Positions 2,625 through 31,258 are shown, counted from the stretch's first letter. The stretch: 46,991 bases of DNA from an uncultured Gammaproteobacteria bacterium (GCA_964645885.1 CAZYCO010000008.1:7171-54161); one strand, 5' to 3'. Notes: generated by a model from the letters alone, not told the origin. Program-made: numbers and translations.

Positions 2625-4610
2625 TTATATCTTTATCGAATTATTATTAATGCTTTTTACTTCTTCTGCAGTTTGATTGTTATTGCATGAATCATCATTA
2701 GCTGAAAGTTTGATATTGTCGTTTTTATGTGTAGTTGGTTTAAAAAAGCGCCAAAGAATAGGTGTGTGCGCTTCTGTTTTAGTAGCAGAAATTGGTTCTG
2801 CTTCGATGCGATGATCCATTGGTGCAATACTAATTTTCAAACCAGTATGGAGATGAATATCTTGAATTACTTTTGGTTCATCAGTTTCTGTAGATTTAGG
2901 ATCATACACATTCACATGAAAATCCCTGTCTTTTGTTATCACAATTCCTGTTTTTGAATCCGTTACTAAATGCGCTTCATCAAACTTAGTTTCATATAGT
3001 GCTAATTGCTCAACTGAAATTCCCAGTTTTTTTATATCTTGATCATTAGGGTGAAAATCATAAATGCCATAAAAAACACCGTCAGGTATATCAGCACCTG
3101 TTAATTCGCGCACAACAGCATGCTCGTATTTTTTAGGAACAAAGAAATGTAATTCACGCGCAGTGTAAGTATTGGGTGGTTTAGGTGGCTGTTCCGCATT
3201 GTTATTTTCTTCGACTCTAGGTGTGCCTCGAGTTTTTAATTTTGGTTGTTTTTCAATATTTTCATTTGGTGAGGGGTTATCCGTTTGATTATTATTTTCT
3301 TTCGGTTTTTCTTCAGGAATAAGCGGTGTTTCAGCACTGGCTTCTTTAAGAGCTTCATTTACTTTGTTATTACTTTCTTCTAAGTCTGCTAAATGGTTGA
3401 AAAAGTTCTCTAATGCAAGAACGATTTCTCCAAATAAAGAAGGGCAAATCTGTCCCGAATTTTTTAAAGTCAAAGTCAAATTTTCATAAGTCCAATCAAT
3501 AAATTTTTCAAATTTAATTAAAATAGATGGGTGAAAAAATTTTTTCGTGAAATGAAAGTGAATTAGTTTTTTTTCTGCATCAACTTCCCATTCGAAATTT
3601 GGAGTGATTAATAACTTCAAATTGGTTGAATGTTGTAGAAAATGACGCTCATTAATATCTTTAACAACTGGAGAATTTGATCCAAAGCAGATACATGCTA
3701 CTTGATACATTCTGCTAAATAAAATCGCAGCGTATAATGCAGAATGTTGAAGTTCAATATTATTCAAATGTTCTGCCAAGTTAAGATACATTGAAAAAGC
3801 AGTTTTTTTACAATGAGTAAATAATGCAACTTCAGAATAACATCCTGGTAGAGGTGGTTGTTCAGATAGTTCTGATGCATGTTGATGTAACAATTGAAAC
3901 AAGGGGATGGTTTTTTCAAGATAATCAAGAGCAGTTTTGAAATGGTGTTTATCAAAATAAAATTTTGCCAAATTTGTTTTTTTCAAAAGTAATTCAAGAT
4001 ACAAAGTGCTTCTAGATGTGAATGGTTGATTTTTTTTAAGTTGTATTAATTTATTTAGCGAAATAATACTCAATAAAATGTTATCTAAATATTCAACTTC
4101 GCTGGTATTTCTTTTAGCTGGTAATATGTAGTCACGAATAAGTACACTATGTTCCAAAAAATCTTCGTATGATTTCTGATAATTAATATGTGCAGTATTT
4201 ATAACTTTAAAAGTTTTTTTATGCGTGGCTCTGAATTTTTCAAATAATTCAATAAAAGAATAGGCTTTTTGCACAAGTTTATCATCGAACATTTTTGACT
4301 GATTTAGTGCAGCAAAAGTTTTAGCAATAAAATTTAAAACTTGACTATGCATAATAATCATAGAAATTATTGCATCGAGCGAAGGACTTTTTTGCTTACT
4401 ATAAGATTGATTAGCTTTTTTGATTTCTGTATTTAGTTTTTCTAATGCCGTACAAAGTTTTTTTATGAGTAACTCTGTCATTTTTGGGTTTTCAGGATTA
4501 CTTTTTAATTTCTCCAATGTTTGTTGTATCGCTTCTTCTTGTTCAACTATAGAAGAAAAGAAACGATTCATAATATTTTGTTTGAATTCTTCAGGGGTAA
4601 ATTTCGGCAT
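2625..4610 (-). CDS. Orphan 661-aa protein: helical N-terminal region, Pro/Asn/Glu-rich linker, beta-rich C-terminal region. No family recognised.
   Basis: Long uninterrupted ORF with host-like codon usage. I recognise no catalytic or family motif. Linker is PLIPEEKPKENNNQTDNPSPNENIEKQPKLKTRGTPRVEENNNAEQPPKPPN. Polar C-terminus is ...NNNQTAEEVKSINNNSIKI. Confidence 0.7.
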   Translation of the reverse strand: MPKFTPEEFKQNIMNRFFSSIVEQEEAIQQTLEKLKSNPENPKMTELLIKKLCTALEKLNTEIKKANQSYSKQKSPSLDAIISMIIMHSQVLNFIAKTFAALNQSKMFDDKLVQKAYSFIELFEKFRATHKKTFKVINTAHINYQKSYEDFLEHSVLIRDYILPAKRNTSEVEYLDNILLSIISLNKLIQLKKNQPFTSRSTLYLELLLKKTNLAKFYFDKHHFKTALDYLEKTIPLFQLLHQHASELSEQPPLPGCYSEVALFTHCKKTAFSMYLNLAEHLNNIELQHSALYAAILFSRMYQVACICFGSNSPVVKDINERHFLQHSTNLKLLITPNFEWEVDAEKKLIHFHFTKKFFHPSILIKFEKFIDWTYENLTLTLKNSGQICPSLFGEIVLALENFFNHLADLEESNNKVNEALKEASAETPLIPEEKPKENNNQTDNPSPNENIEKQPKLKTRGTPRVEENNNAEQPPKPPNTYTARELHFFVPKKYEHAVVRELTGADIPDGVFYGIYDFHPNDQDIKKLGISVEQLALYETKFDEAHLVTDSKTGIVITKDRDFHVNVYDPKSTETDEPKVIQDIHLHTGLKISIAPMDHRIEAEPISATKTEAHTPILWRFFKPTTHKNDNIKLSANDDSCNNNQTAEEVKSINNNSIKI

Positions 4611-19714: not shown

Positions 19715-20647
19715 ATGATAACAAAAAATTTCAAATTATTTTTAGCTATTTTGATTGGAATTTTACTTATTTCGGGGTGCAGCAAGTCAAAAAGTGACCC
19801 TTTTAGAAAGTTTAATGCTCAGCAACTTTATGAAAAAGGCGAGTTCAACTTAGCCAACAAGGAATACCAAACGGCTATTTCTCTTTTTGAAGCCTTAGAT
19901 GCGCGTTATCCGTTCTCAATTTATGCCGAACAAGCGCAACTCGATATTATTTACGCTTACTATAAAGCTGGTGACAAAGCTTCTGCAGTAGCAGCAGCTG
20001 ATCGATATATTCAAATTTATCCAGCAAGTCCTAATGTTGATTACGCTTATTATTTAAAGGGAATTGCAAATTACGACCAAGAACATGGATTTTTACAACG
20101 CTACGTCAATATTAATGATGCGCAACGAGATTTAGGTACCGCTTTTGAAGCGTATCAAGATTTCAATACCTTAATTCAGCGTTTTCCAGATAGTAAATAT
20201 GCACCAGACGCCAGAAAACGAATGATTCACTTACGTGAGTTATTAGCAAGACATGACTATGAAATCGCAGAATACTATTACAAACGTGGTTCTTATGTTG
20301 CGGCAATAAATAGAGCGCAAGGGGTCATTCATAATTTCCCGCAAACTGCAGCAACTGAGCCAGCGCTTATTTTGCTATTTAAAGCCAACCGGAAATTAGG
20401 CTTAACCAAAGCGGCAGACGATGCTTTGCGAATTTTGAAACTAAATTACCCAAACTCTAGTTATCTACTTAAGCATGAAGCTAAGCAAAGTAAACCTGCG
20501 GAAAATACTGAGAAAACCTCGGAAAATACGCAGAAACAGCAAAGTAGTAACGAAACCGCTCCACCTCAAAAGAAGAAAAAATGGGCTATGCTTTATCAAA
20601 AGCTGTTCGAAAAGGGGAGAGAACCACTATGGCAGTCCACAAACTAA
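19715..20647 (+). CDS. bamD: Outer membrane assembly lipoprotein BamD (YfiO/ComL)
   Basis: Lipobox LLISGC followed by TPR-like repeats (YEKGEFNLANKEYQTAISLFEAL...). I preferred the second ATG (19715) because of an upstream GGAAAG; 19697 is also possible. Lys/Gln-rich C-terminal extension. Confidence 0.88.
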   Translation: MITKNFKLFLAILIGILLISGCSKSKSDPFRKFNAQQLYEKGEFNLANKEYQTAISLFEALDARYPFSIYAEQAQLDIIYAYYKAGDKASAVAAADRYIQIYPASPNVDYAYYLKGIANYDQEHGFLQRYVNINDAQRDLGTAFEAYQDFNTLIQRFPDSKYAPDARKRMIHLRELLARHDYEIAEYYYKRGSYVAAINRAQGVIHNFPQTAATEPALILLFKANRKLGLTKAADDALRILKLNYPNSSYLLKHEAKQSKPAENTEKTSENTQKQQSSNETAPPQKKKKWAMLYQKLFEKGREPLWQSTN

Positions 20648-20664
20648 CTATTGGTAAGGTGATT

Positions 20665-21129
20665 ATGAATAACAAACATTCAGGCATTCAGGATAAGAAA
20701 GCGGTTGTTGAAAAATTGTGTCACGTACTTGCCGACACTTATTTGCTCTATCTTAAAACTCAAAATTTTCATTGGAATGTACGAGGTCCATTATTCCGCG
20801 ATCTTCATAAATTATTTGAAGAGCAATATACCGAACTTGCAGAAGCGATTGATGTTGTTGCAGAACGTATTCGTGCTTTAGATGCTTTTGCACCTGCTTC
20901 ATTTGCAGAATTTTCTAAACTTTCTCAAATTAAAGAAGAAACAAAGCATTTAAAAGCGGAAGCGATGATCAAACAATTAATTTCTGATCATGAAAAAATA
21001 GATGCTTATTTACATGAAATTTTTAATTCTGTTCAAAGTACGGGTGATGAAGCAACTGCTGATTTGCTTATTGAACGAATGACAGCGCATGAAAAAACAA
21101 TCTGGATGTTGAAAAGTTTTTTTGAATGA
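20665..21129 (+). CDS. dps: DNA-binding ferritin-like protein Dps
   Basis: LYLKTQNFHWNVRGPLFRDLHKLFEEQY ferroxidase-site region. The corrected start (ATG 20665, RBS AAGGTG) gives 154 aa. The track ORF from 20581 overlaps the bamD end. Confidence 0.9.
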   Translation: MNNKHSGIQDKKAVVEKLCHVLADTYLLYLKTQNFHWNVRGPLFRDLHKLFEEQYTELAEAIDVVAERIRALDAFAPASFAEFSKLSQIKEETKHLKAEAMIKQLISDHEKIDAYLHEIFNSVQSTGDEATADLLIERMTAHEKTIWMLKSFFE

Positions 21130-21133
21130 TTAA

Positions 21134-21190
21134 ATGAACCCTCACCCGCCCGCACTTCGTTTGGGCGACCTCTCCCGCAAGCGGGAGAGG
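21134..21190 (+). repeat. Family-2 intergenic palindromic repeat, copy 2 (between convergent dps and comF; likely bidirectional terminator)
   Basis: ATGAACCCTCACCCGCCC..CGCCCgcacttcgtttGGGCG..CCTCTCCCGCaaGCGGGAGAGG, with a perfect 10-bp second stem. It starts 5 nt after the dps stop. Confidence 0.65.
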
Positions 21191-21203
21191 TGGACGGTGG
21201 TTT

Positions 21204-21953
21204 CTATTTCAACACTGTTCTCGCACACACCCATACTGCAATAAATTCCACACCATTTTCTTTTAAAGTTTTACAAAATTCTTTAATGGTACTTCCAGTT
21301 GTCACTACATCATCAATCACTAAAACTTTTTTTGCAGAAAATTTTTTATCAACAACAAATGCTTTTTTAATATTTGAAGAACGTTGCTCAAATGTTAATT
21401 GAGATTGCGCATTGGTATTTTTAATTCGCTTGCATTGATGTAATAGCAATGGAATGTTTAATTGTTTACTGATAGGTCTTGCAATTTCCACTGCTTGATT
21501 AAAACCTCTTTTTTTTATGCGTGAGCGATGCAGTGGTACAGGAATAATAAAATCAAAGTGATGTTTCATATCTTCTGCAAAATAATTTGTCATTAATAAG
21601 CCAAATATGCGTGCATAAATTAAATTTTCATGAAATTTTGTTTGAGTAATCCAATCATCGATAGGATGTTCATATAGAAATAATGATTTGATTTCATCAA
21701 AAGGAGTTTGTTCGTTTAAACATGCACCACAAATTAAATTTTTAACAGAAGATGGTGGAAGAGGTTCGGCGCAGCGATAACAGCTAAAACGTAAAAACGG
21801 CAAGGTTTTCTCACATGAAACACAAAGATTAATTTTTCTATTACTTAACTCTTTGCAAATAACGCAAGTTGAGGGAAAGACGAAATTGAACACAGATAAA
21901 TACTTTGTATTGTCAGTGCTGACAGTTTTATAAATTTGTTTGATTAATTGCAT
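21204..21953 (-). CDS. comF: ComF family phosphoribosyltransferase-like protein
   Basis: N-terminal Cys clusters (CVICKE..CVSC, CYRC..CGAC) and PRTase motif VLVIDDVVTTGSTI. Confidence 0.85.
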   Translation of the reverse strand: MQLIKQIYKTVSTDNTKYLSVFNFVFPSTCVICKELSNRKINLCVSCEKTLPFLRFSCYRCAEPLPPSSVKNLICGACLNEQTPFDEIKSLFLYEHPIDDWITQTKFHENLIYARIFGLLMTNYFAEDMKHHFDFIIPVPLHRSRIKKRGFNQAVEIARPISKQLNIPLLLHQCKRIKNTNAQSQLTFEQRSSNIKKAFVVDKKFSAKKVLVIDDVVTTGSTIKEFCKTLKENGVEFIAVWVCARTVLK

Positions 21954-27663: not shown

Positions 27664-27921
27664 TTAATCTCTTACTTCTTTCATAAAATCATTAATCATT
27701 TTTTGTAAACGAATAACATCGGTTTCAATATTTTCAATTACTTGTAACAACAAATTAATATTATCTTGTGAGATGGCGTGTTGTGGTTGTTTGCCATTCA
27801 GTAAATTTTCATAGTTTTGCAAAATTAATGGCAAATAATTTTTGATACCACTTGCACCAAGTTGAATTGATGCAAGTGGTGTACGGATATCATGAACAAA
27901 TTTTTCAATCATCTCATTCAT
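27664..27921 (-). CDS. Stand-alone histidine-kinase DHp (HisKA) domain mini-protein, 85 aa, no ATPase domain
   Basis: H-box EKFVHDIRTPLASIQLGA followed by a second amphipathic helix (NLLLQVIENIETDVIRLQKMINDFMKEV). The ATG lies 2 nt after the ispA stop. The stop is 1 nt from the bioD stop, so there is no room for a CA domain. Confidence 0.6.
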   Translation of the reverse strand: MNEMIEKFVHDIRTPLASIQLGASGIKNYLPLILQNYENLLNGKQPQHAISQDNINLLLQVIENIETDVIRLQKMINDFMKEVRD

Positions 27922-28767: not shown

Positions 28768-29031
28768 TTATTCACTATCATCACTTTGTTCCAATATTTT
28801 GCTATCAAAAGTTTCAAGATTCATGGTTGAGTTTTTGGTTCTTAAAATTTGAATCCGTTGCTCAGCTGCTTGTAACGCTTTTTGGCATTGTTGGGTTAAT
28901 TGAATACCGCGTTCATAGTGCGACAGGGATTGTTCAAGACTTAAATCACCATGCTCCATTTGTTCCACAATTGTGCTTAATTCATTTAGCACTTGCTCGA
29001 AATCAACCGTCGTATTGGTCTTTTTGGTCAC
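28768..29031 (-). CDS. xseB: Exodeoxyribonuclease VII small subunit
   Basis: GTG start 7 nt after GGAGG. FEQVLNELSTIVEQMEHGDLSLEQSLSHYERGIQLTQQCQ is typical of XseB. Confidence 0.9.
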   Translation of the reverse strand: MTKKTNTTVDFEQVLNELSTIVEQMEHGDLSLEQSLSHYERGIQLTQQCQKALQAAEQRIQILRTKNSTMNLETFDSKILEQSDDSE

Positions 29032-29155
29032 TTCAGAACCTCCGTACCTAAAATGGTGGTAGGACGTTATCTGACTGCTTTGGAGCGGTCAATTGATACC
29101 TAGTCCTCAAATTACTTGCAACAGAATGCCTTTATCTTTACATTATTCAAATTAA

Positions 29156-29182
29156 TTTAAATTACATTGGATGTAATTTAAA
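29156..29182 (+). promoter_or_regulatory. Perfect 12-bp inverted repeat with TGG spacer in the leader or promoter of the 142-aa ORF (DNA operator and/or CsrA-type GGA hairpin)
   Basis: TTTAAATTACAT-TGG-ATGTAATTTAAA. As RNA, the core UACAUUGGAUGU is close to the CsrA high-affinity consensus RUACARGGAUGU. It lies 48-74 nt upstream of the ATG at 29230. Confidence 0.5.
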
Positions 29183-29229
29183 ACATTTTAGTAAAAATAC
29201 CCTAATTTTCTATTGCAGGGAGCAAAAAA

Positions 29230-29658
29230 ATGGCTGCTTTAAATACCTCAGATCTTCATATTTTTAAAATTGTTGAAATTAAAAACCCTACCAAGGATAA
29301 ATATTGGGTGGTCATAAAAATTTTAGGTTTGGACGAATTAATAGAAGAAAAACCAATTAATTTAATTGAAGATGATGTTGTCATCCAAGGGTTTTCGCCG
29401 CTAGATGTTAGAACACTTACTCTTTTAGCTTGCGCAGAATGGCATTTCCCCAATCAAACTATAGTTGCTTATGATTTTAGTGAGCCGGATAACGAAACTG
29501 TTTTTCATATTAAAGAACGACACAAATCATATGTTGTCAAAAAGAAATTAAGTGAACTTCATGCCGATCGGCAAACACTTTCGGAATTTGATCCAATTGA
29601 TGCTTACCGAATCGGATATTTTCATGGACTGAATCGTATTACTTTTAATAAAAAATAA
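29230..29658 (+). CDS. Orphan 142-aa protein, no recognised family
   Basis: ORF with a strong RBS (AGGGAG 7 nt upstream). Its stop codon directly abuts the stop of the convergent repressor gene (0-nt gap). Confidence 0.6.
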   Translation: MAALNTSDLHIFKIVEIKNPTKDKYWVVIKILGLDELIEEKPINLIEDDVVIQGFSPLDVRTLTLLACAEWHFPNQTIVAYDFSEPDNETVFHIKERHKSYVVKKKLSELHADRQTLSEFDPIDAYRIGYFHGLNRITFNKK

Positions 29659-30306
29659 TTATTCGATTAAATTAATTCGAGTCTGTACAACTACTCCAAT
29701 GATTCGATCTGTTTCACCTAACGGTACAGGCTCTAATTTATTCAAATATGGATTCAAAGACTGTAAATAGCAGTGTGCGCCATCAAGTAGAATTTGTTTG
29801 AATAATGCTTCTGCTTCATTTTGCAAATGTACAACAACAAAACTTTTATCGCGGATCACTTGTTCAGGATCAACAACTAGTAATGTCCCTTCTGGGAACA
29901 ATGTTTCCATTGCTGAGCCTTTAACACGTAGTGCAAATGCACTTTGACTTACTTTAGCATCAGAAAAAATATTTTGAGTTGCTGCAAAATATGGATTTTG
30001 TTGTTTGAGTTGCGGCCATTCAATTGCTTGTTCCCATGTGAGCAATGGTACAGAAGTTAATTGATGTGTAACGAAACGAGTATGTAATTCTTCAACCGGT
30101 GTTTCGTCTAATAGATCAGCAATAGAAATTGCTAACGCATTTGCAAGTGCAATTAGTGATTTGCGATGCGGCCTACTTGTTGCACCAGATAAAATATGAT
30201 GAACCGTTGGTTGCGGTAATGAAGCAGCACGAGCTAAATCTATTTCAGATAAGTTGCCACGGCACTTCATAAAATAACGCAGTCTGTCGCTGAGTTTATT
30301 TGTCAT
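29659..30306 (-). CDS. Lambda-CI-like HTH repressor with a degenerate (Ser-to-Ala) S24 peptidase domain
   Basis: N-terminal XRE-type HTH (LSEIDLARAASLPQPTVHHILSG). The C-terminal region aligns with the CI/LexA autocleavage domain (SAFALRVKGSAMETLFPEGTLLVVDPEQ...LFKQILLDGAHCYLQSLNP). I preferred the start at MTNKLSDRL (30306, after AGGGGAG); the track start is 30348. Confidence 0.8.
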   Translation of the reverse strand: MTNKLSDRLRYFMKCRGNLSEIDLARAASLPQPTVHHILSGATSRPHRKSLIALANALAISIADLLDETPVEELHTRFVTHQLTSVPLLTWEQAIEWPQLKQQNPYFAATQNIFSDAKVSQSAFALRVKGSAMETLFPEGTLLVVDPEQVIRDKSFVVVHLQNEAEALFKQILLDGAHCYLQSLNPYLNKLEPVPLGETDRIIGVVVQTRINLIE

Positions 30307-30508
30307 TTTTTTCTCATCTCCCCTTATTACTCCAACGATTGAAAACAAATTTTTTTCAATTTAAATTTGACAATTTAAATAATTAAGAATAAAAAAGAAT
30401 AAATGTAATTTTTAAAACGAGAGACTACCACATTTTTTTTTAAGAAGAACAGTGCTTAACACCACATGTTGAAACAAGGTTCGTTTAAATCACAAGGGAG
30501 ATGTATCA

Positions 30509-30688
30509 ATGTTAGTTCTTACACGTAAAGTTAATGAAAAAATCATAATTGGTAACAACCAAGAAATTGTTGCCAAAGTTTTGCGAATTAGAGGAGGGAA
30601 AGTTCGTATTGGTATTGAAGCACCGAAACAAGTACGTGTTTATCGAGAAGAAGTTTTAAAACAAACGCACGGTGGTGAAGCTGAATAA
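30509..30688 (+). CDS. csrA: CsrA/RsmA-family RNA-binding protein, divergent paralogue (59 aa; below the ORF-track length cutoff)
   Basis: My translation is [59 protein letters not shown]. It carries the CsrA signatures MLxLTR(K/R) and VRIGIxAPxxVxVxREE. RBS AAGGGAG is 8 nt upstream. Confidence 0.85.
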
Positions 30689-30711
30689 TTAATTTAATTT
30701 TTCATAATTAT

Positions 30712-30748
30712 TTTGTAGGGTGACGAAAAATAATTTAGTCACCCACAA
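30712..30748. repeat. GTAGGG-headed hairpin between csrA and the cupin gene (REP-like, possible terminator)
   Basis: TTGTAGGGTGAC-gaaaaataattta-GTCACCCACAA. No U-tail follows. Confidence 0.45.
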
Positions 30749-30763
30749 CAATAGGAGAAGTTA

Positions 30764-31258
30764 ATGTTACCAGCGGTAAAAACTTATATTGAAAAATATA
30801 ATTTACAACGTCATCCAGAAGGTGGTTATTTTTCTGAAACTTATCGCTCAGCAGATCATGTTGCACCGAAACACGAGCGTTATCAAAACGAAGAGCGAAC
30901 TGCAGGAACATCAATTTACTACTTACTAGAAGGAAATGACTTTTCAGCATTTCATAAAATCAAATCAGACGAAATTTGGCATTTTTATGATGGTTGTGAT
31001 GTTGAAATTTATGTGATTGATCCAACTGGTAAATTAAACAGTTATTTATTAGGTTGTGGTCTAAATGCTCATTTCCAAGTTGTTATCCCAGCAGGGTATT
31101 GGTTTGCTGCAAAACCAATTGATAGTTTATCGTTTAGTTTTGTTGGTTGTACTGTTCATCCTGGATTTGAATTCAGAGATTTTATATTGGCCGAACAACA
31201 GGTTTTTTTGAGCCAATATCCTCAATATAAAGAACTAATTCTAAAATTTACCCGTTAA
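30764..31258 (+). CDS. Cupin superfamily protein, DUF985 type
   Basis: LQRHPEGGYFSETYRS near the N-terminus and the FHKIKSDEIWHFYDG beta-barrel motifs are typical of DUF985. RBS AGGAG. Confidence 0.8.
   Translation: MLPAVKTYIEKYNLQRHPEGGYFSETYRSADHVAPKHERYQNEERTAGTSIYYLLEGNDFSAFHKIKSDEIWHFYDGCDVEIYVIDPTGKLNSYLLGCGLNAHFQVVIPAGYWFAAKPIDSLSFSFVGCTVHPGFEFRDFILAEQQVFLSQYPQYKELILKFTR

Follow-up and report, generated by a model that had tools for sequence, protein, structure and literature searches.

A palindrome before a 142-amino-acid gene as part of a candidate operator array in a chromosomal lvr-type module

Integrative and conjugative elements (ICEs) of the Legionella type are reported to be controlled by the lvrR/lvrC module, which consists of a repressor and a paralogue of CsrA (PMC3864950, PMC4471563). 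The cis-elements and the targets of this module are not described in these two papers. Here we analyze a related locus in a stretch of 46,991 nucleotides from an uncultured Gammaproteobacteria bacterium (GCA_964645885.1, CAZYCO010000008.1:7171-54161; referred to as the window, with positions counted from its first letter). A palindrome at 29156-29182 lies upstream of a gene for a protein of 142 amino acids (aa), next to genes for a CI/LvrR-like repressor and a CsrA paralogue. The original prediction on this DNA had proposed that the palindrome forms a near-consensus CsrA hairpin in the leader of the 142-aa gene or, as a fallback, that it is a DNA operator of the CI-like protein. At about even probability, we favour an array of DNA operators of which the palindrome forms the downstream half; its regulator would most likely be the LvrR/CI-type repressor encoded next to it.

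Conserved boxes at the predicted promoter of the 142-aa gene

The window has two close relatives, L001 and L002, so that three genomes including the window can be aligned; a distant genome, L003, was used for comparison as well (source runs of L001-L003: ERR15087766, SRR21358121 and SRR29487294). Third-codon identity among the three genomes is 0.5-0.6 in xseB, the 142-aa gene, the repressor gene and csrA, and unconstrained DNA is therefore expected to be about 55% identical. Because neutral divergence is this high, the 83-89% identity of the block 29108-29154 means constraint. A second block, 30486-30508, is 87-96% identical. The sequence TTGCAA-17-TA[C/A]ATT is the only sigma-70-like hexamer pair that shares its alignment columns in the window, L001 and L002. 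Around the predicted -35 hexamer CAAATTACTTGCAAC is invariant in the three genomes, and a by-eye reading of L003 gives TTGCAC-17-TAATTT as the counterpart. The predicted start near 29151 would put the palindrome at about +5 to +31. Thus, the palindrome is probably transcribed, which keeps a model at the RNA level in play.

Three boxes based on the self-complementary sequence ATTTAAAT are located at this promoter (Table 1), boxes 2 and 3 at about +5 to +32 from the predicted start. Box 1 sits 19 bp upstream of box 2, and box 3 follows at a spacing of 21 bp, both distances being roughly two helical turns, so that the boxes make up two overlapping 27-bp dyads, O1 and O2, the latter being the palindrome. 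The boxes start at 3910 and 3929 in L001 and at 3909, 3928 and 3949 in L002. Dyad scores of O1 and O2 are 9/12 and 12/12 in the window, 12/12 and 10/12 in L001, and 11/12 and 9/12 in L002. The perfect 12-3-12 palindrome of L001, ATTTAAATTATT-CAA-AATAATTTAAAT, is the pair of boxes 1 and 2, and the 47-kb window as a whole contains two 12-3-12 dyads with at least 11 matches. O1 lies over the -10 and the start site. If the promoter call is right, it cannot form a hairpin in the RNA, since the -10 occupies its left arm, and the recurrent dyad symmetry is best read at the level of the DNA.

The palindrome is made up of the left arm TTTAAATTACAT (29156-29167), TGG (29168-29170) and the right arm ATGTAATTTAAA (29171-29182); re-reading of the sequence confirmed the perfect 12-bp inverted repeat with a 3-nt spacer that had been described. 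In the alignment it reads ATTTAAATT-ACATTGGATGT-AATTTAAAA in the window, ATTTAAATT-ACATTGGAAGT-AATTTAATT in L001 and ATTTAAATT-AAATTCTCTAA-AATTTAAAT in L002, the last with an A-U stem of 9 bp and no GGA. The outer ATTTAAAT(T) boxes are unchanged in the three genomes, as compared to a neutral identity of about 55%. The central 11 nt have changed at one position in L001, without compensation, and at six positions in L002, with loss of the GGA. Seven of the 12 pairs never vary, and the other five depart only by breaks in one relative or another, none of the 12 being compensated. The energy of the hairpin is -8.0 kcal/mol in the window, -5.3 kcal/mol in L001 and -2.0 kcal/mol in L002. Judged from the aligned sequences, the inner 4-bp symmetry and the UGG centre are lineage-specific. 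The dyad symmetry, the invariant outer half-sites with a freer centre, and the placement of box 1 over the predicted -10 are properties of an operator.

If the boxes are an operator, a regulator occupying them would block RNA polymerase at TTGCAA-17-TACATT, and the best candidate for this role is the adjacent, very strongly conserved LvrR/CI-type helix-turn-helix (HTH) repressor. Its amino acid identity in the three genomes is 95-96%, as compared to a third-codon identity of about 59%; with synonymous sites thus near saturation, the protein is under strong purifying selection. With IspA at about 82% identity in the same genomes, an unchanged DNA-binding specificity of the repressor, and with it unchanged boxes, would be expected. 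The same regulator would bind two identical boxes flanking TTGACA between its own gene and that of the CsrA paralogue, and one protein would in this way set the transcription of all three genes.

Within this second, divergent regulatory region, a block of 111 nt (30340-30450) of non-coding DNA is 93% identical in the three genomes and contains the boxes, TTGACA and GAGAGACTACCACATTTTTTTTTA. Its conservation at the DNA level exceeds that of every neighbouring gene, and the block has no match in Rfam. In the two regulatory regions together (400 bp), ATTTAAAT occurs three times, as compared to 0.1 occurrences expected from the composition of these regions, and none of 5000 shuffles reached three. 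With spacings of 14 or 19-21 bp and a single mismatch overall permitted, paired boxes were found in the 47 kb only at 29155/29176 and 30359/30373 (2 versus 0.21 expected, P ~0.015). Only the 8-bp core recurs at CI/csrA, without the longer 10-bp arm and without the 12-3-12 geometry. The fallback of the original prediction, a DNA operator, is favoured by the conservation of the outer boxes, the overlap with the promoter and the recurrence at CI/csrA, and from these sequence features we infer the transcription start, the CI-like protein as the binder and repression by its binding.

Several observations weigh against the operator reading. The motif and the spacings were picked after inspection of the data, the window as a whole contains no more copies of ATTTAAAT than chance would give (8 versus 8.2 expected), and an unbiased test for k-mers shared between the two regulatory regions was not significant (P 0.07-0.16). 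The distance between box starts is 19-21 bp at the promoter of the 142-aa gene and 14 bp at CI/csrA. Furthermore, each dyad spans 27 bp, with 10-bp arms and a distance of about 20 bp from one box centre to the next, which is more than the approximately 14-20 bp typical for the site of a single dimer; two dimers or a long-reach dimer could account for this. Ten of the 11 positions of the spacer ACATTGGA[T/A]GT agree between the window and L001, which has a probability of about 1.4% in a binomial estimate assuming about 55% neutral identity and hints at a function for the centre, too. The comparison rests on three alignable genomes; in the distant L003 and L004 no motif common to both regulatory regions could be demonstrated. 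The promoter, the start and the binding are predicted features. Finally, A/T-tract palindromes of differing sequence adjoin TTGACA of the CI/csrA region in every lineage (L003, L004 and L091), and such palindromes beside a -35 could be promoter DNA of the UP-element type instead of repressor sites.

This last point leads to an explanation that we regard as rather unlikely, namely that the boxes serve a different A/T-specific factor (a nucleoid-associated protein or the 142-aa protein) or are part of the promoter architecture, and that the neighbouring repressor is not involved. In the latter case they would correspond to A/T tracts resembling UP elements or to TAAATT hexamers resembling a -10. 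TAAATT within the box is indeed a -10 candidate at both promoters, the palindromes beside TTGACA in the different lineages have the form T(n)A(n), and the spacing of the boxes is unequal between the regions. However, box 2, box 3 and the box on the 3' side of TTGACA lie outside UP-element and -10 positions, and the conservation of the boxes is far above neutral. With respect to the 142-aa protein as the binding factor, its structural model is weakly similar to tandem chromo-like (SH3-like) domains, but fusions of some members of its family to LuxR-type HTH domains suggest a sensor or partner domain and not a DNA binder.

The palindrome might also have no function of its own. It would then be a by-product of two neighbouring, self-complementary A/T boxes in DNA rich in A/T or would, at most, stabilise the mRNA as a generic 5'-terminal hairpin. 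Among the perfect inverted repeats of the window with loops of at most 10 nt it is the longest, and arms of at least 12 bp were obtained in 11 of 100 dinucleotide-preserving shuffles of the window; on its own it is only mildly unusual for DNA of 35% G+C. Since 11% of the shuffles match its length and the folding energy of the complete leader is ordinary (z = -0.26), the weight of the palindrome rests on its position and conservation. Both values, together with the loss of the inner stem in L002, would fit a sequence without function. Yet conservation is strong in the boxes and in the promoter block, O1 and O2 both score high in the three genomes, and the spacer is nearly identical between the window and L001, so that we consider this explanation very unlikely.

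Other candidate functions were rejected. For an intrinsic terminator the stem is almost pure A-U (1/12 pairs is G-C) and a U tract is missing; a scan of 28900-30800 yielded no terminator-like site. A minus-strand promoter running through the palindrome (TAGAAA-16-TAAAAT) is not conserved in L001 and L002 according to a by-eye reading of the alignment. A tyrosine-recombinase core site (10-7-10) was dismissed, as an integrase is missing from the surroundings, the boxes are found again at the second promoter and the position is fixed in three genomes. No covariance model of Rfam 15 matched at the gathering score in the whole window, a permissive Rfam search of 28950-30800 gave chance-level hits only (E above 1), and no transfer RNA or transfer-messenger RNA was found.

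Table 1. Features of the locus with their positions in the window.
Feature	Position	Strand	Remarks
xseB	28768-29031	-	gene call
Predicted -35 TTGCAA of the 142-aa gene promoter	29116-29121	+	same alignment columns in window, L001 and L002
Box 1 (degenerate CTTTACAT; ATTTAAAT in L001 and L002)	29136-29143	.	overlaps -10
Dyad O1 (boxes 1 and 2, 12-3-12 geometry)	29136-29162	.	left arm over -10
Predicted -10 (TACATT; TAAATT in L001 and L002)	29139-29144	+	start implied near 29151
Box 2 ATTTAAAT	29155-29162	.	outer left arm of palindrome; invariant in three genomes
Dyad O2 (the palindrome)	29156-29182	.	boxes 2 and 3 plus symmetric spacer
UGGA, candidate upstream CsrA site	29168-29171	+	present in window and L001; L002 has AAATTCTCTAA
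Box 3 (ATTTAAAA; ATTTAATT in L001; ATTTAAAT in L002)	29176-29183	.	outer right arm
Shine-Dalgarno hairpin UUGC-AGGGA-GCAA of the 142-aa gene	29213-29225	+	GCA[G/U]GGAGC conserved in three genomes
142-aa gene	29230-29658	+	family without name, accompanying LvrR-like repressors
CI/LvrR-like repressor (HTH_3/HTH_26 and Peptidase_S24)	29659-30306	-	likely true start ATG 30306
ATTTAAAT-TTGACA-ATTTAAAT	30359-30380	.	two boxes around perfect -35-like hexamer; invariant in three genomes
Shine-Dalgarno hairpin ACA-AGGGAGA-UGU of the csrA paralogue	30492-30504	+	invariant in window, L001 and L002
CsrA paralogue, 59 aa, Leu at position 2	30509-30688	+	Pfam CsrA, E 1.5e-21

The leader of the 142-aa gene as a possible target of CsrA

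In the reading that headed the original prediction, the palindrome is a transcribed 5' hairpin with UGGA at its tip, and a dimer of the CsrA paralogue or of canonical CsrA bridges from there to the GGA in the Shine-Dalgarno (SD) sequence and represses translation. We consider this unlikely. A CsrA function may coexist with a DNA operator; the comparison does not require a role for CsrA. The elements named for this model were recovered in part. The SD sequence AGGGAG with the second GGA is present at 29217-29222, the ATG of the 142-aa gene follows at 29230, and the distance between the two GGA motifs (29169-29171 and 29219-29221) is indeed 50 nt, a spacing that can be bridged by a CsrA dimer. 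With regard to the UUGGA postulated for the tip of the stem, the loop in the minimum-energy fold is UGG. In the predicted ensemble of the window the two G residues are free (P = 1.0), but the A of the GGA is paired in the best fold (P(unpaired) 0.25); the GGA of L001 is unpaired throughout. The consensus of CsrA sites obtained by SELEX (systematic evolution of ligands by exponential enrichment) is RUACARGGAUGU, from which the tip had been said to differ by one extra U. One base is inserted, but the R is replaced by UU, and in ACA-UU-GGA-UGU the A stands three bases before the GGA, so that the tip does not conform to A(N)GGA. Ungapped matches to the SELEX consensus are at chance level in the window (86 versus 100 expected). 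A third copy of ATGTAATTT at 30403 leaves the count at chance (3 versus 2.6 expected), and the G of this copy differs in L001 and L002.

A hairpin that the original prediction did not mention is formed around the SD sequence, with a stem of 2-4 bp in the relatives, of which L001 and L002 have 2-3 bp. Its CAGGGAG fits A(N)GGA, and it obeys the rule of an A(N)GGA in the loop given for Legionella CsrA (PMC5338858). The GGA of this hairpin would be a more plausible CsrA site than the tip of the palindrome. However, a GGA within an SD sequence is uninformative, as SD sequences contain GGA anyway.

A few further observations are in line with binding of CsrA to the upstream site. The predicted start near 29151 would place the palindrome on the mRNA, and L001 retains the GGA although its single substitution breaks the stem. 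In L003, whose repressor is 57% identical and whose leader cannot be aligned, an unrelated, G+C-containing hairpin, CGCA-UGGAUU-UGCG, has its GGA at -61, the position found in the window (-61) and close to that in L001 (-58). By a rough estimate this coincidence has a probability of a few to ten percent by chance and is suggestive only. L091 (repressor 55% identical, csrA present) supplies no leader, because it has no 142-aa homologue. In addition, the paralogue retains the signature of the CsrA fold, its own SD sequence lies in a conserved GGA hairpin, and in L. pneumophila the mRNA of a CsrA paralogue is a direct target of CsrA (PMC4471563).

On the other hand, the leader of L002 is devoid of any upstream GGA, though its 145-aa, CI and CsrA genes are intact. 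Six orthologous leaders show no enrichment of GGA outside the SD sequence (about 5 upstream versus about 4 expected), and the outer 8-9 bp of the stem are accounted for by the DNA boxes. Taken together with the lack of compensation, the decaying stem and the deviation of the tip from A(N)GGA, the loss of the GGA in L002 leaves the near-consensus CsrA hairpin of the original prediction lacking comparative support.

The operator reading and a CsrA site could also be combined. The same 27 nt would then act in the DNA as operator for a non-cleavable repressor of the LvrR type and in the 5' mRNA as the upstream site of a dimer of the CsrA paralogue whose other contact clamps the SD sequence. The 142-aa protein, with its two chromo-like domains, would be a hitherto unrecognised third component of the lvr-type switch (a partner, sensor or anti-repressor of LvrR-like repressors) in ICEs and, here, in a domesticated chromosomal copy without genes for a type IV secretion system (T4SS). 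We regard this combination as quite improbable. It would amount to a transcriptional plus a translational lock on the 142-aa gene.

The repressor, the CsrA paralogue and the 142-aa family

The order xseB, 142-aa homologue, CI-like gene and csrA is kept in L001, L002 and the distant L003, in agreement with the earlier view that the three genes are one module. The csrA paralogue, described as being about 1.3 kb away from the 142-aa gene, is 1.28 kb away from start to start. Only two close relatives of the 142-aa protein, those of L001 and L002, were found among 5.8 billion proteins in a word-indexed search. A tblastn search of plasmids and two exact-pattern scans of JGI metagenomes gave no further relatives, and a search of the GTDB species genomes with the repressor found no close genome. 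The SufB of the window is closest to that of the Legionellaceae (81-83% identity).

For the repressor, the list of open reading frames (ORFs) gives a TTG start at 30348 (229 aa); ATG 30306 (215 aa), 14 codons downstream and preceded by GGGGAGATGAG, is favoured, since the calls in L001 and L002 and all homologues start there. The S24 motif at residues 128-134 reads KGSAME in the window, L001 and L002, with Ala before the invariant Met in place of G-x-S-M-E, whereas the distant relatives that were checked, among them L003, L004, L006 and L009, keep Ser there (GSSME, DSSME, DASME or DVSMD). The Lys in LFKQ is present. The Ser of this motif in LexA and lambda CI is the nucleophile, and the Lys the general base, of S24 self-cleavage. 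With Ala in place of the nucleophile, the repressor is predicted not to cleave itself, SOS-type self-cleavage is unlikely, and the protein is probably non-cleavable.

The CsrA paralogue scores 68.2, as compared to the NCBIfam equivalog cut-off of 73 for canonical CsrA. An identity with csrR was rejected, as the paralogue has Leu2 (MLVLTRK) and not Asp2; in CsrR, residue 2 is Asp, and its GGA codon forms the CsrA site BS3 (PMC4471563). In L003 the hairpin at the SD sequence of csrA is CCA-AGGGAGA-UGG, with one compensatory pair in a by-eye reading. This hairpin is a candidate site for autoregulation or for control by canonical CsrA, and control of the csrR mRNA by CsrA is documented (PMC4471563).

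The 142-aa protein has no hit in Pfam, NCBIfam or PHROG, and a PDB sequence search gave none either. By profile search its family comprises 181 representative clusters, none of which matches Pfam, and a few members are fused to LuxR-type HTH, CMD or SBP domains. Homologues are 24-41% identical in pairwise comparisons. They are located directly beside HTH_26 plus Peptidase_S24 repressors in L003, L004, L006 and L009, one gene apart in L010 and about 3 kb apart in L007 (homologues at 4078-4629 in L003, 2946-3398 in L004, 4152-4474 in L006, 3001-3501 in L009 and 3001-3522 in L010). Members of the family often have type IV secretion genes, an integrase or Vut_1 in their neighbourhood; among the copies of L004, L006, L009 and L010, two lie beside type IV secretion genes. 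The copy in L010 has F-type tra genes as neighbours. In L004, whose repressor (51% identical) is the closest relative in an ICE context, a 186-aa gene runs divergently from the repressor gene, with csrA, trbC and virB3 behind it; this arrangement is the classical lvr-type layout (PMC3864950). An AlphaFold2 model of the 142-aa protein built from 70 sequences (predicted local distance difference test score, pLDDT, 92) shows two beta-beta-beta-alpha units with weak chromo/chromoshadow-like hits in fold searches of the PDB and of viral proteins. A model from 3 sequences had a pLDDT of 40.

The module is syntenic next to xseB-ispA in four lineages and lies between xseB-ispA and iscR-suf; the window contains no type IV secretion genes, integrase or equivalents of lvrA and lvrB. 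By this gene content and synteny, the module is an old chromosomal resident. The 142-aa gene and the repressor gene meet tail to tail at 29656-29661, with zero bases between the stop codons and no terminator-like site. Transcription of the 142-aa gene would therefore run antisense into the repressor gene, and transcriptional interference is possible. Within the improbable combined reading given above, such head-on transcription could disturb the expression of the repressor and make the circuit bistable.

Some observations concern the surroundings. TTGACC-17-TAACGT on the minus strand (29064-29092) is likely the promoter of xseB, back to back with that of the 142-aa gene; GGTCAAT and ACGTTAT in it are invariant in the three genomes, and in L001 this promoter-like block is separated from xseB by about 130 inserted nt. 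Between csrA and iscR lies a Cupin_5 (DUF985) gene at 30764-31258, which is missing there in L001, where csrA is followed directly by Rrf2/iscR. An 85-aa ORF by ispA (27664-27921, minus strand), with homologues in L001 and L002 that have a weak or faint HisKA hit, may be a stand-alone HisKA-like small protein. Elsewhere in the window, a G+C-rich perfect 11-bp repeat, ACCTCTCCCGC-AA-GCGGGAGAGGT at 21168-21191, lies between convergent ORFs (20581-21129, plus strand; 21204-21953, minus strand) and looks like an ordinary bidirectional terminator.

Comparison with known systems

Overall, the locus is a small, chromosomal, T4SS-free module of the lvr type with ATTTAAAT as a candidate operator motif, a candidate target promoter and a conserved partner gene family without a match in Pfam, NCBIfam or PHROG. 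If the boxes are operators of the repressor, a 200-bp fragment and two small proteins would suffice to test an lvr-type switch, and the Ser-to-Ala change suggests how the repressor of a mobile element may be kept after domestication.

Known CsrA/RsmA sites, such as those of Legionella fleQ, lqsR and csrR (PMC5338858, PMC4471563), present A(N)GGA in the loops of hairpins, one of which covers the SD sequence. They share with the leader of the 142-aa gene a GGA at a hairpin tip and a GGA in the SD sequence, 50 nt apart, the ACA...UGU around the GGA and the presence of a CsrA-family gene, here 1.3 kb away. In contrast to them, the tip here has an extra U, the GGA is missing in one of three close genomes, there is no covariation, and the stem is built of conserved DNA boxes.

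Taken by itself, a repressor operator overlapping a promoter is an ordinary kind of feature. As at OR/OL of lambda CI, the LexA boxes and the sites of SetR from SXT-type ICEs, dyad sites lie over the core promoter, the sites are repeated and regularly spaced, related sites occur in the divergent region that holds the promoter of the repressor itself, and a protein with HTH and Peptidase_S24 domains is encoded next to them. Unlike those operators, the arms are nearly pure A/T and built on the self-complementary ATTTAAAT, the dyads are 27 bp long (10-bp arms and a 7-bp centre) and share the middle box, and the second promoter has an 8-6-8 geometry. The repressor differs from self-cleaving CI and LexA by the Ala at the position of the S24 nucleophile.

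As in lvrRABC, an LvrR-like HTH-S24 repressor is divergent from a CsrA-family (LvrC-like) gene, the homologue in L004 is found immediately 5' of TrbC/VirB3 genes, and the paralogue has Leu2, like ICE-borne paralogues and unlike CsrR. Different from lvrRABC, there is no lvrA or lvrB between the repressor and csrA, which comes straight after the divergent region, no type IV secretion genes are adjacent, the neighbours are xseB/ispA and cupin/iscR/suf, and the repressor is predicted to be non-cleavable. The third gene, of the 142-aa family, converges on the repressor gene and is not listed among the lvr genes in PMC3864950 and PMC4471563. Judged from its gene content and layout, the module appears to be a new form of lvr-type system with a cis-element of an ordinary kind.

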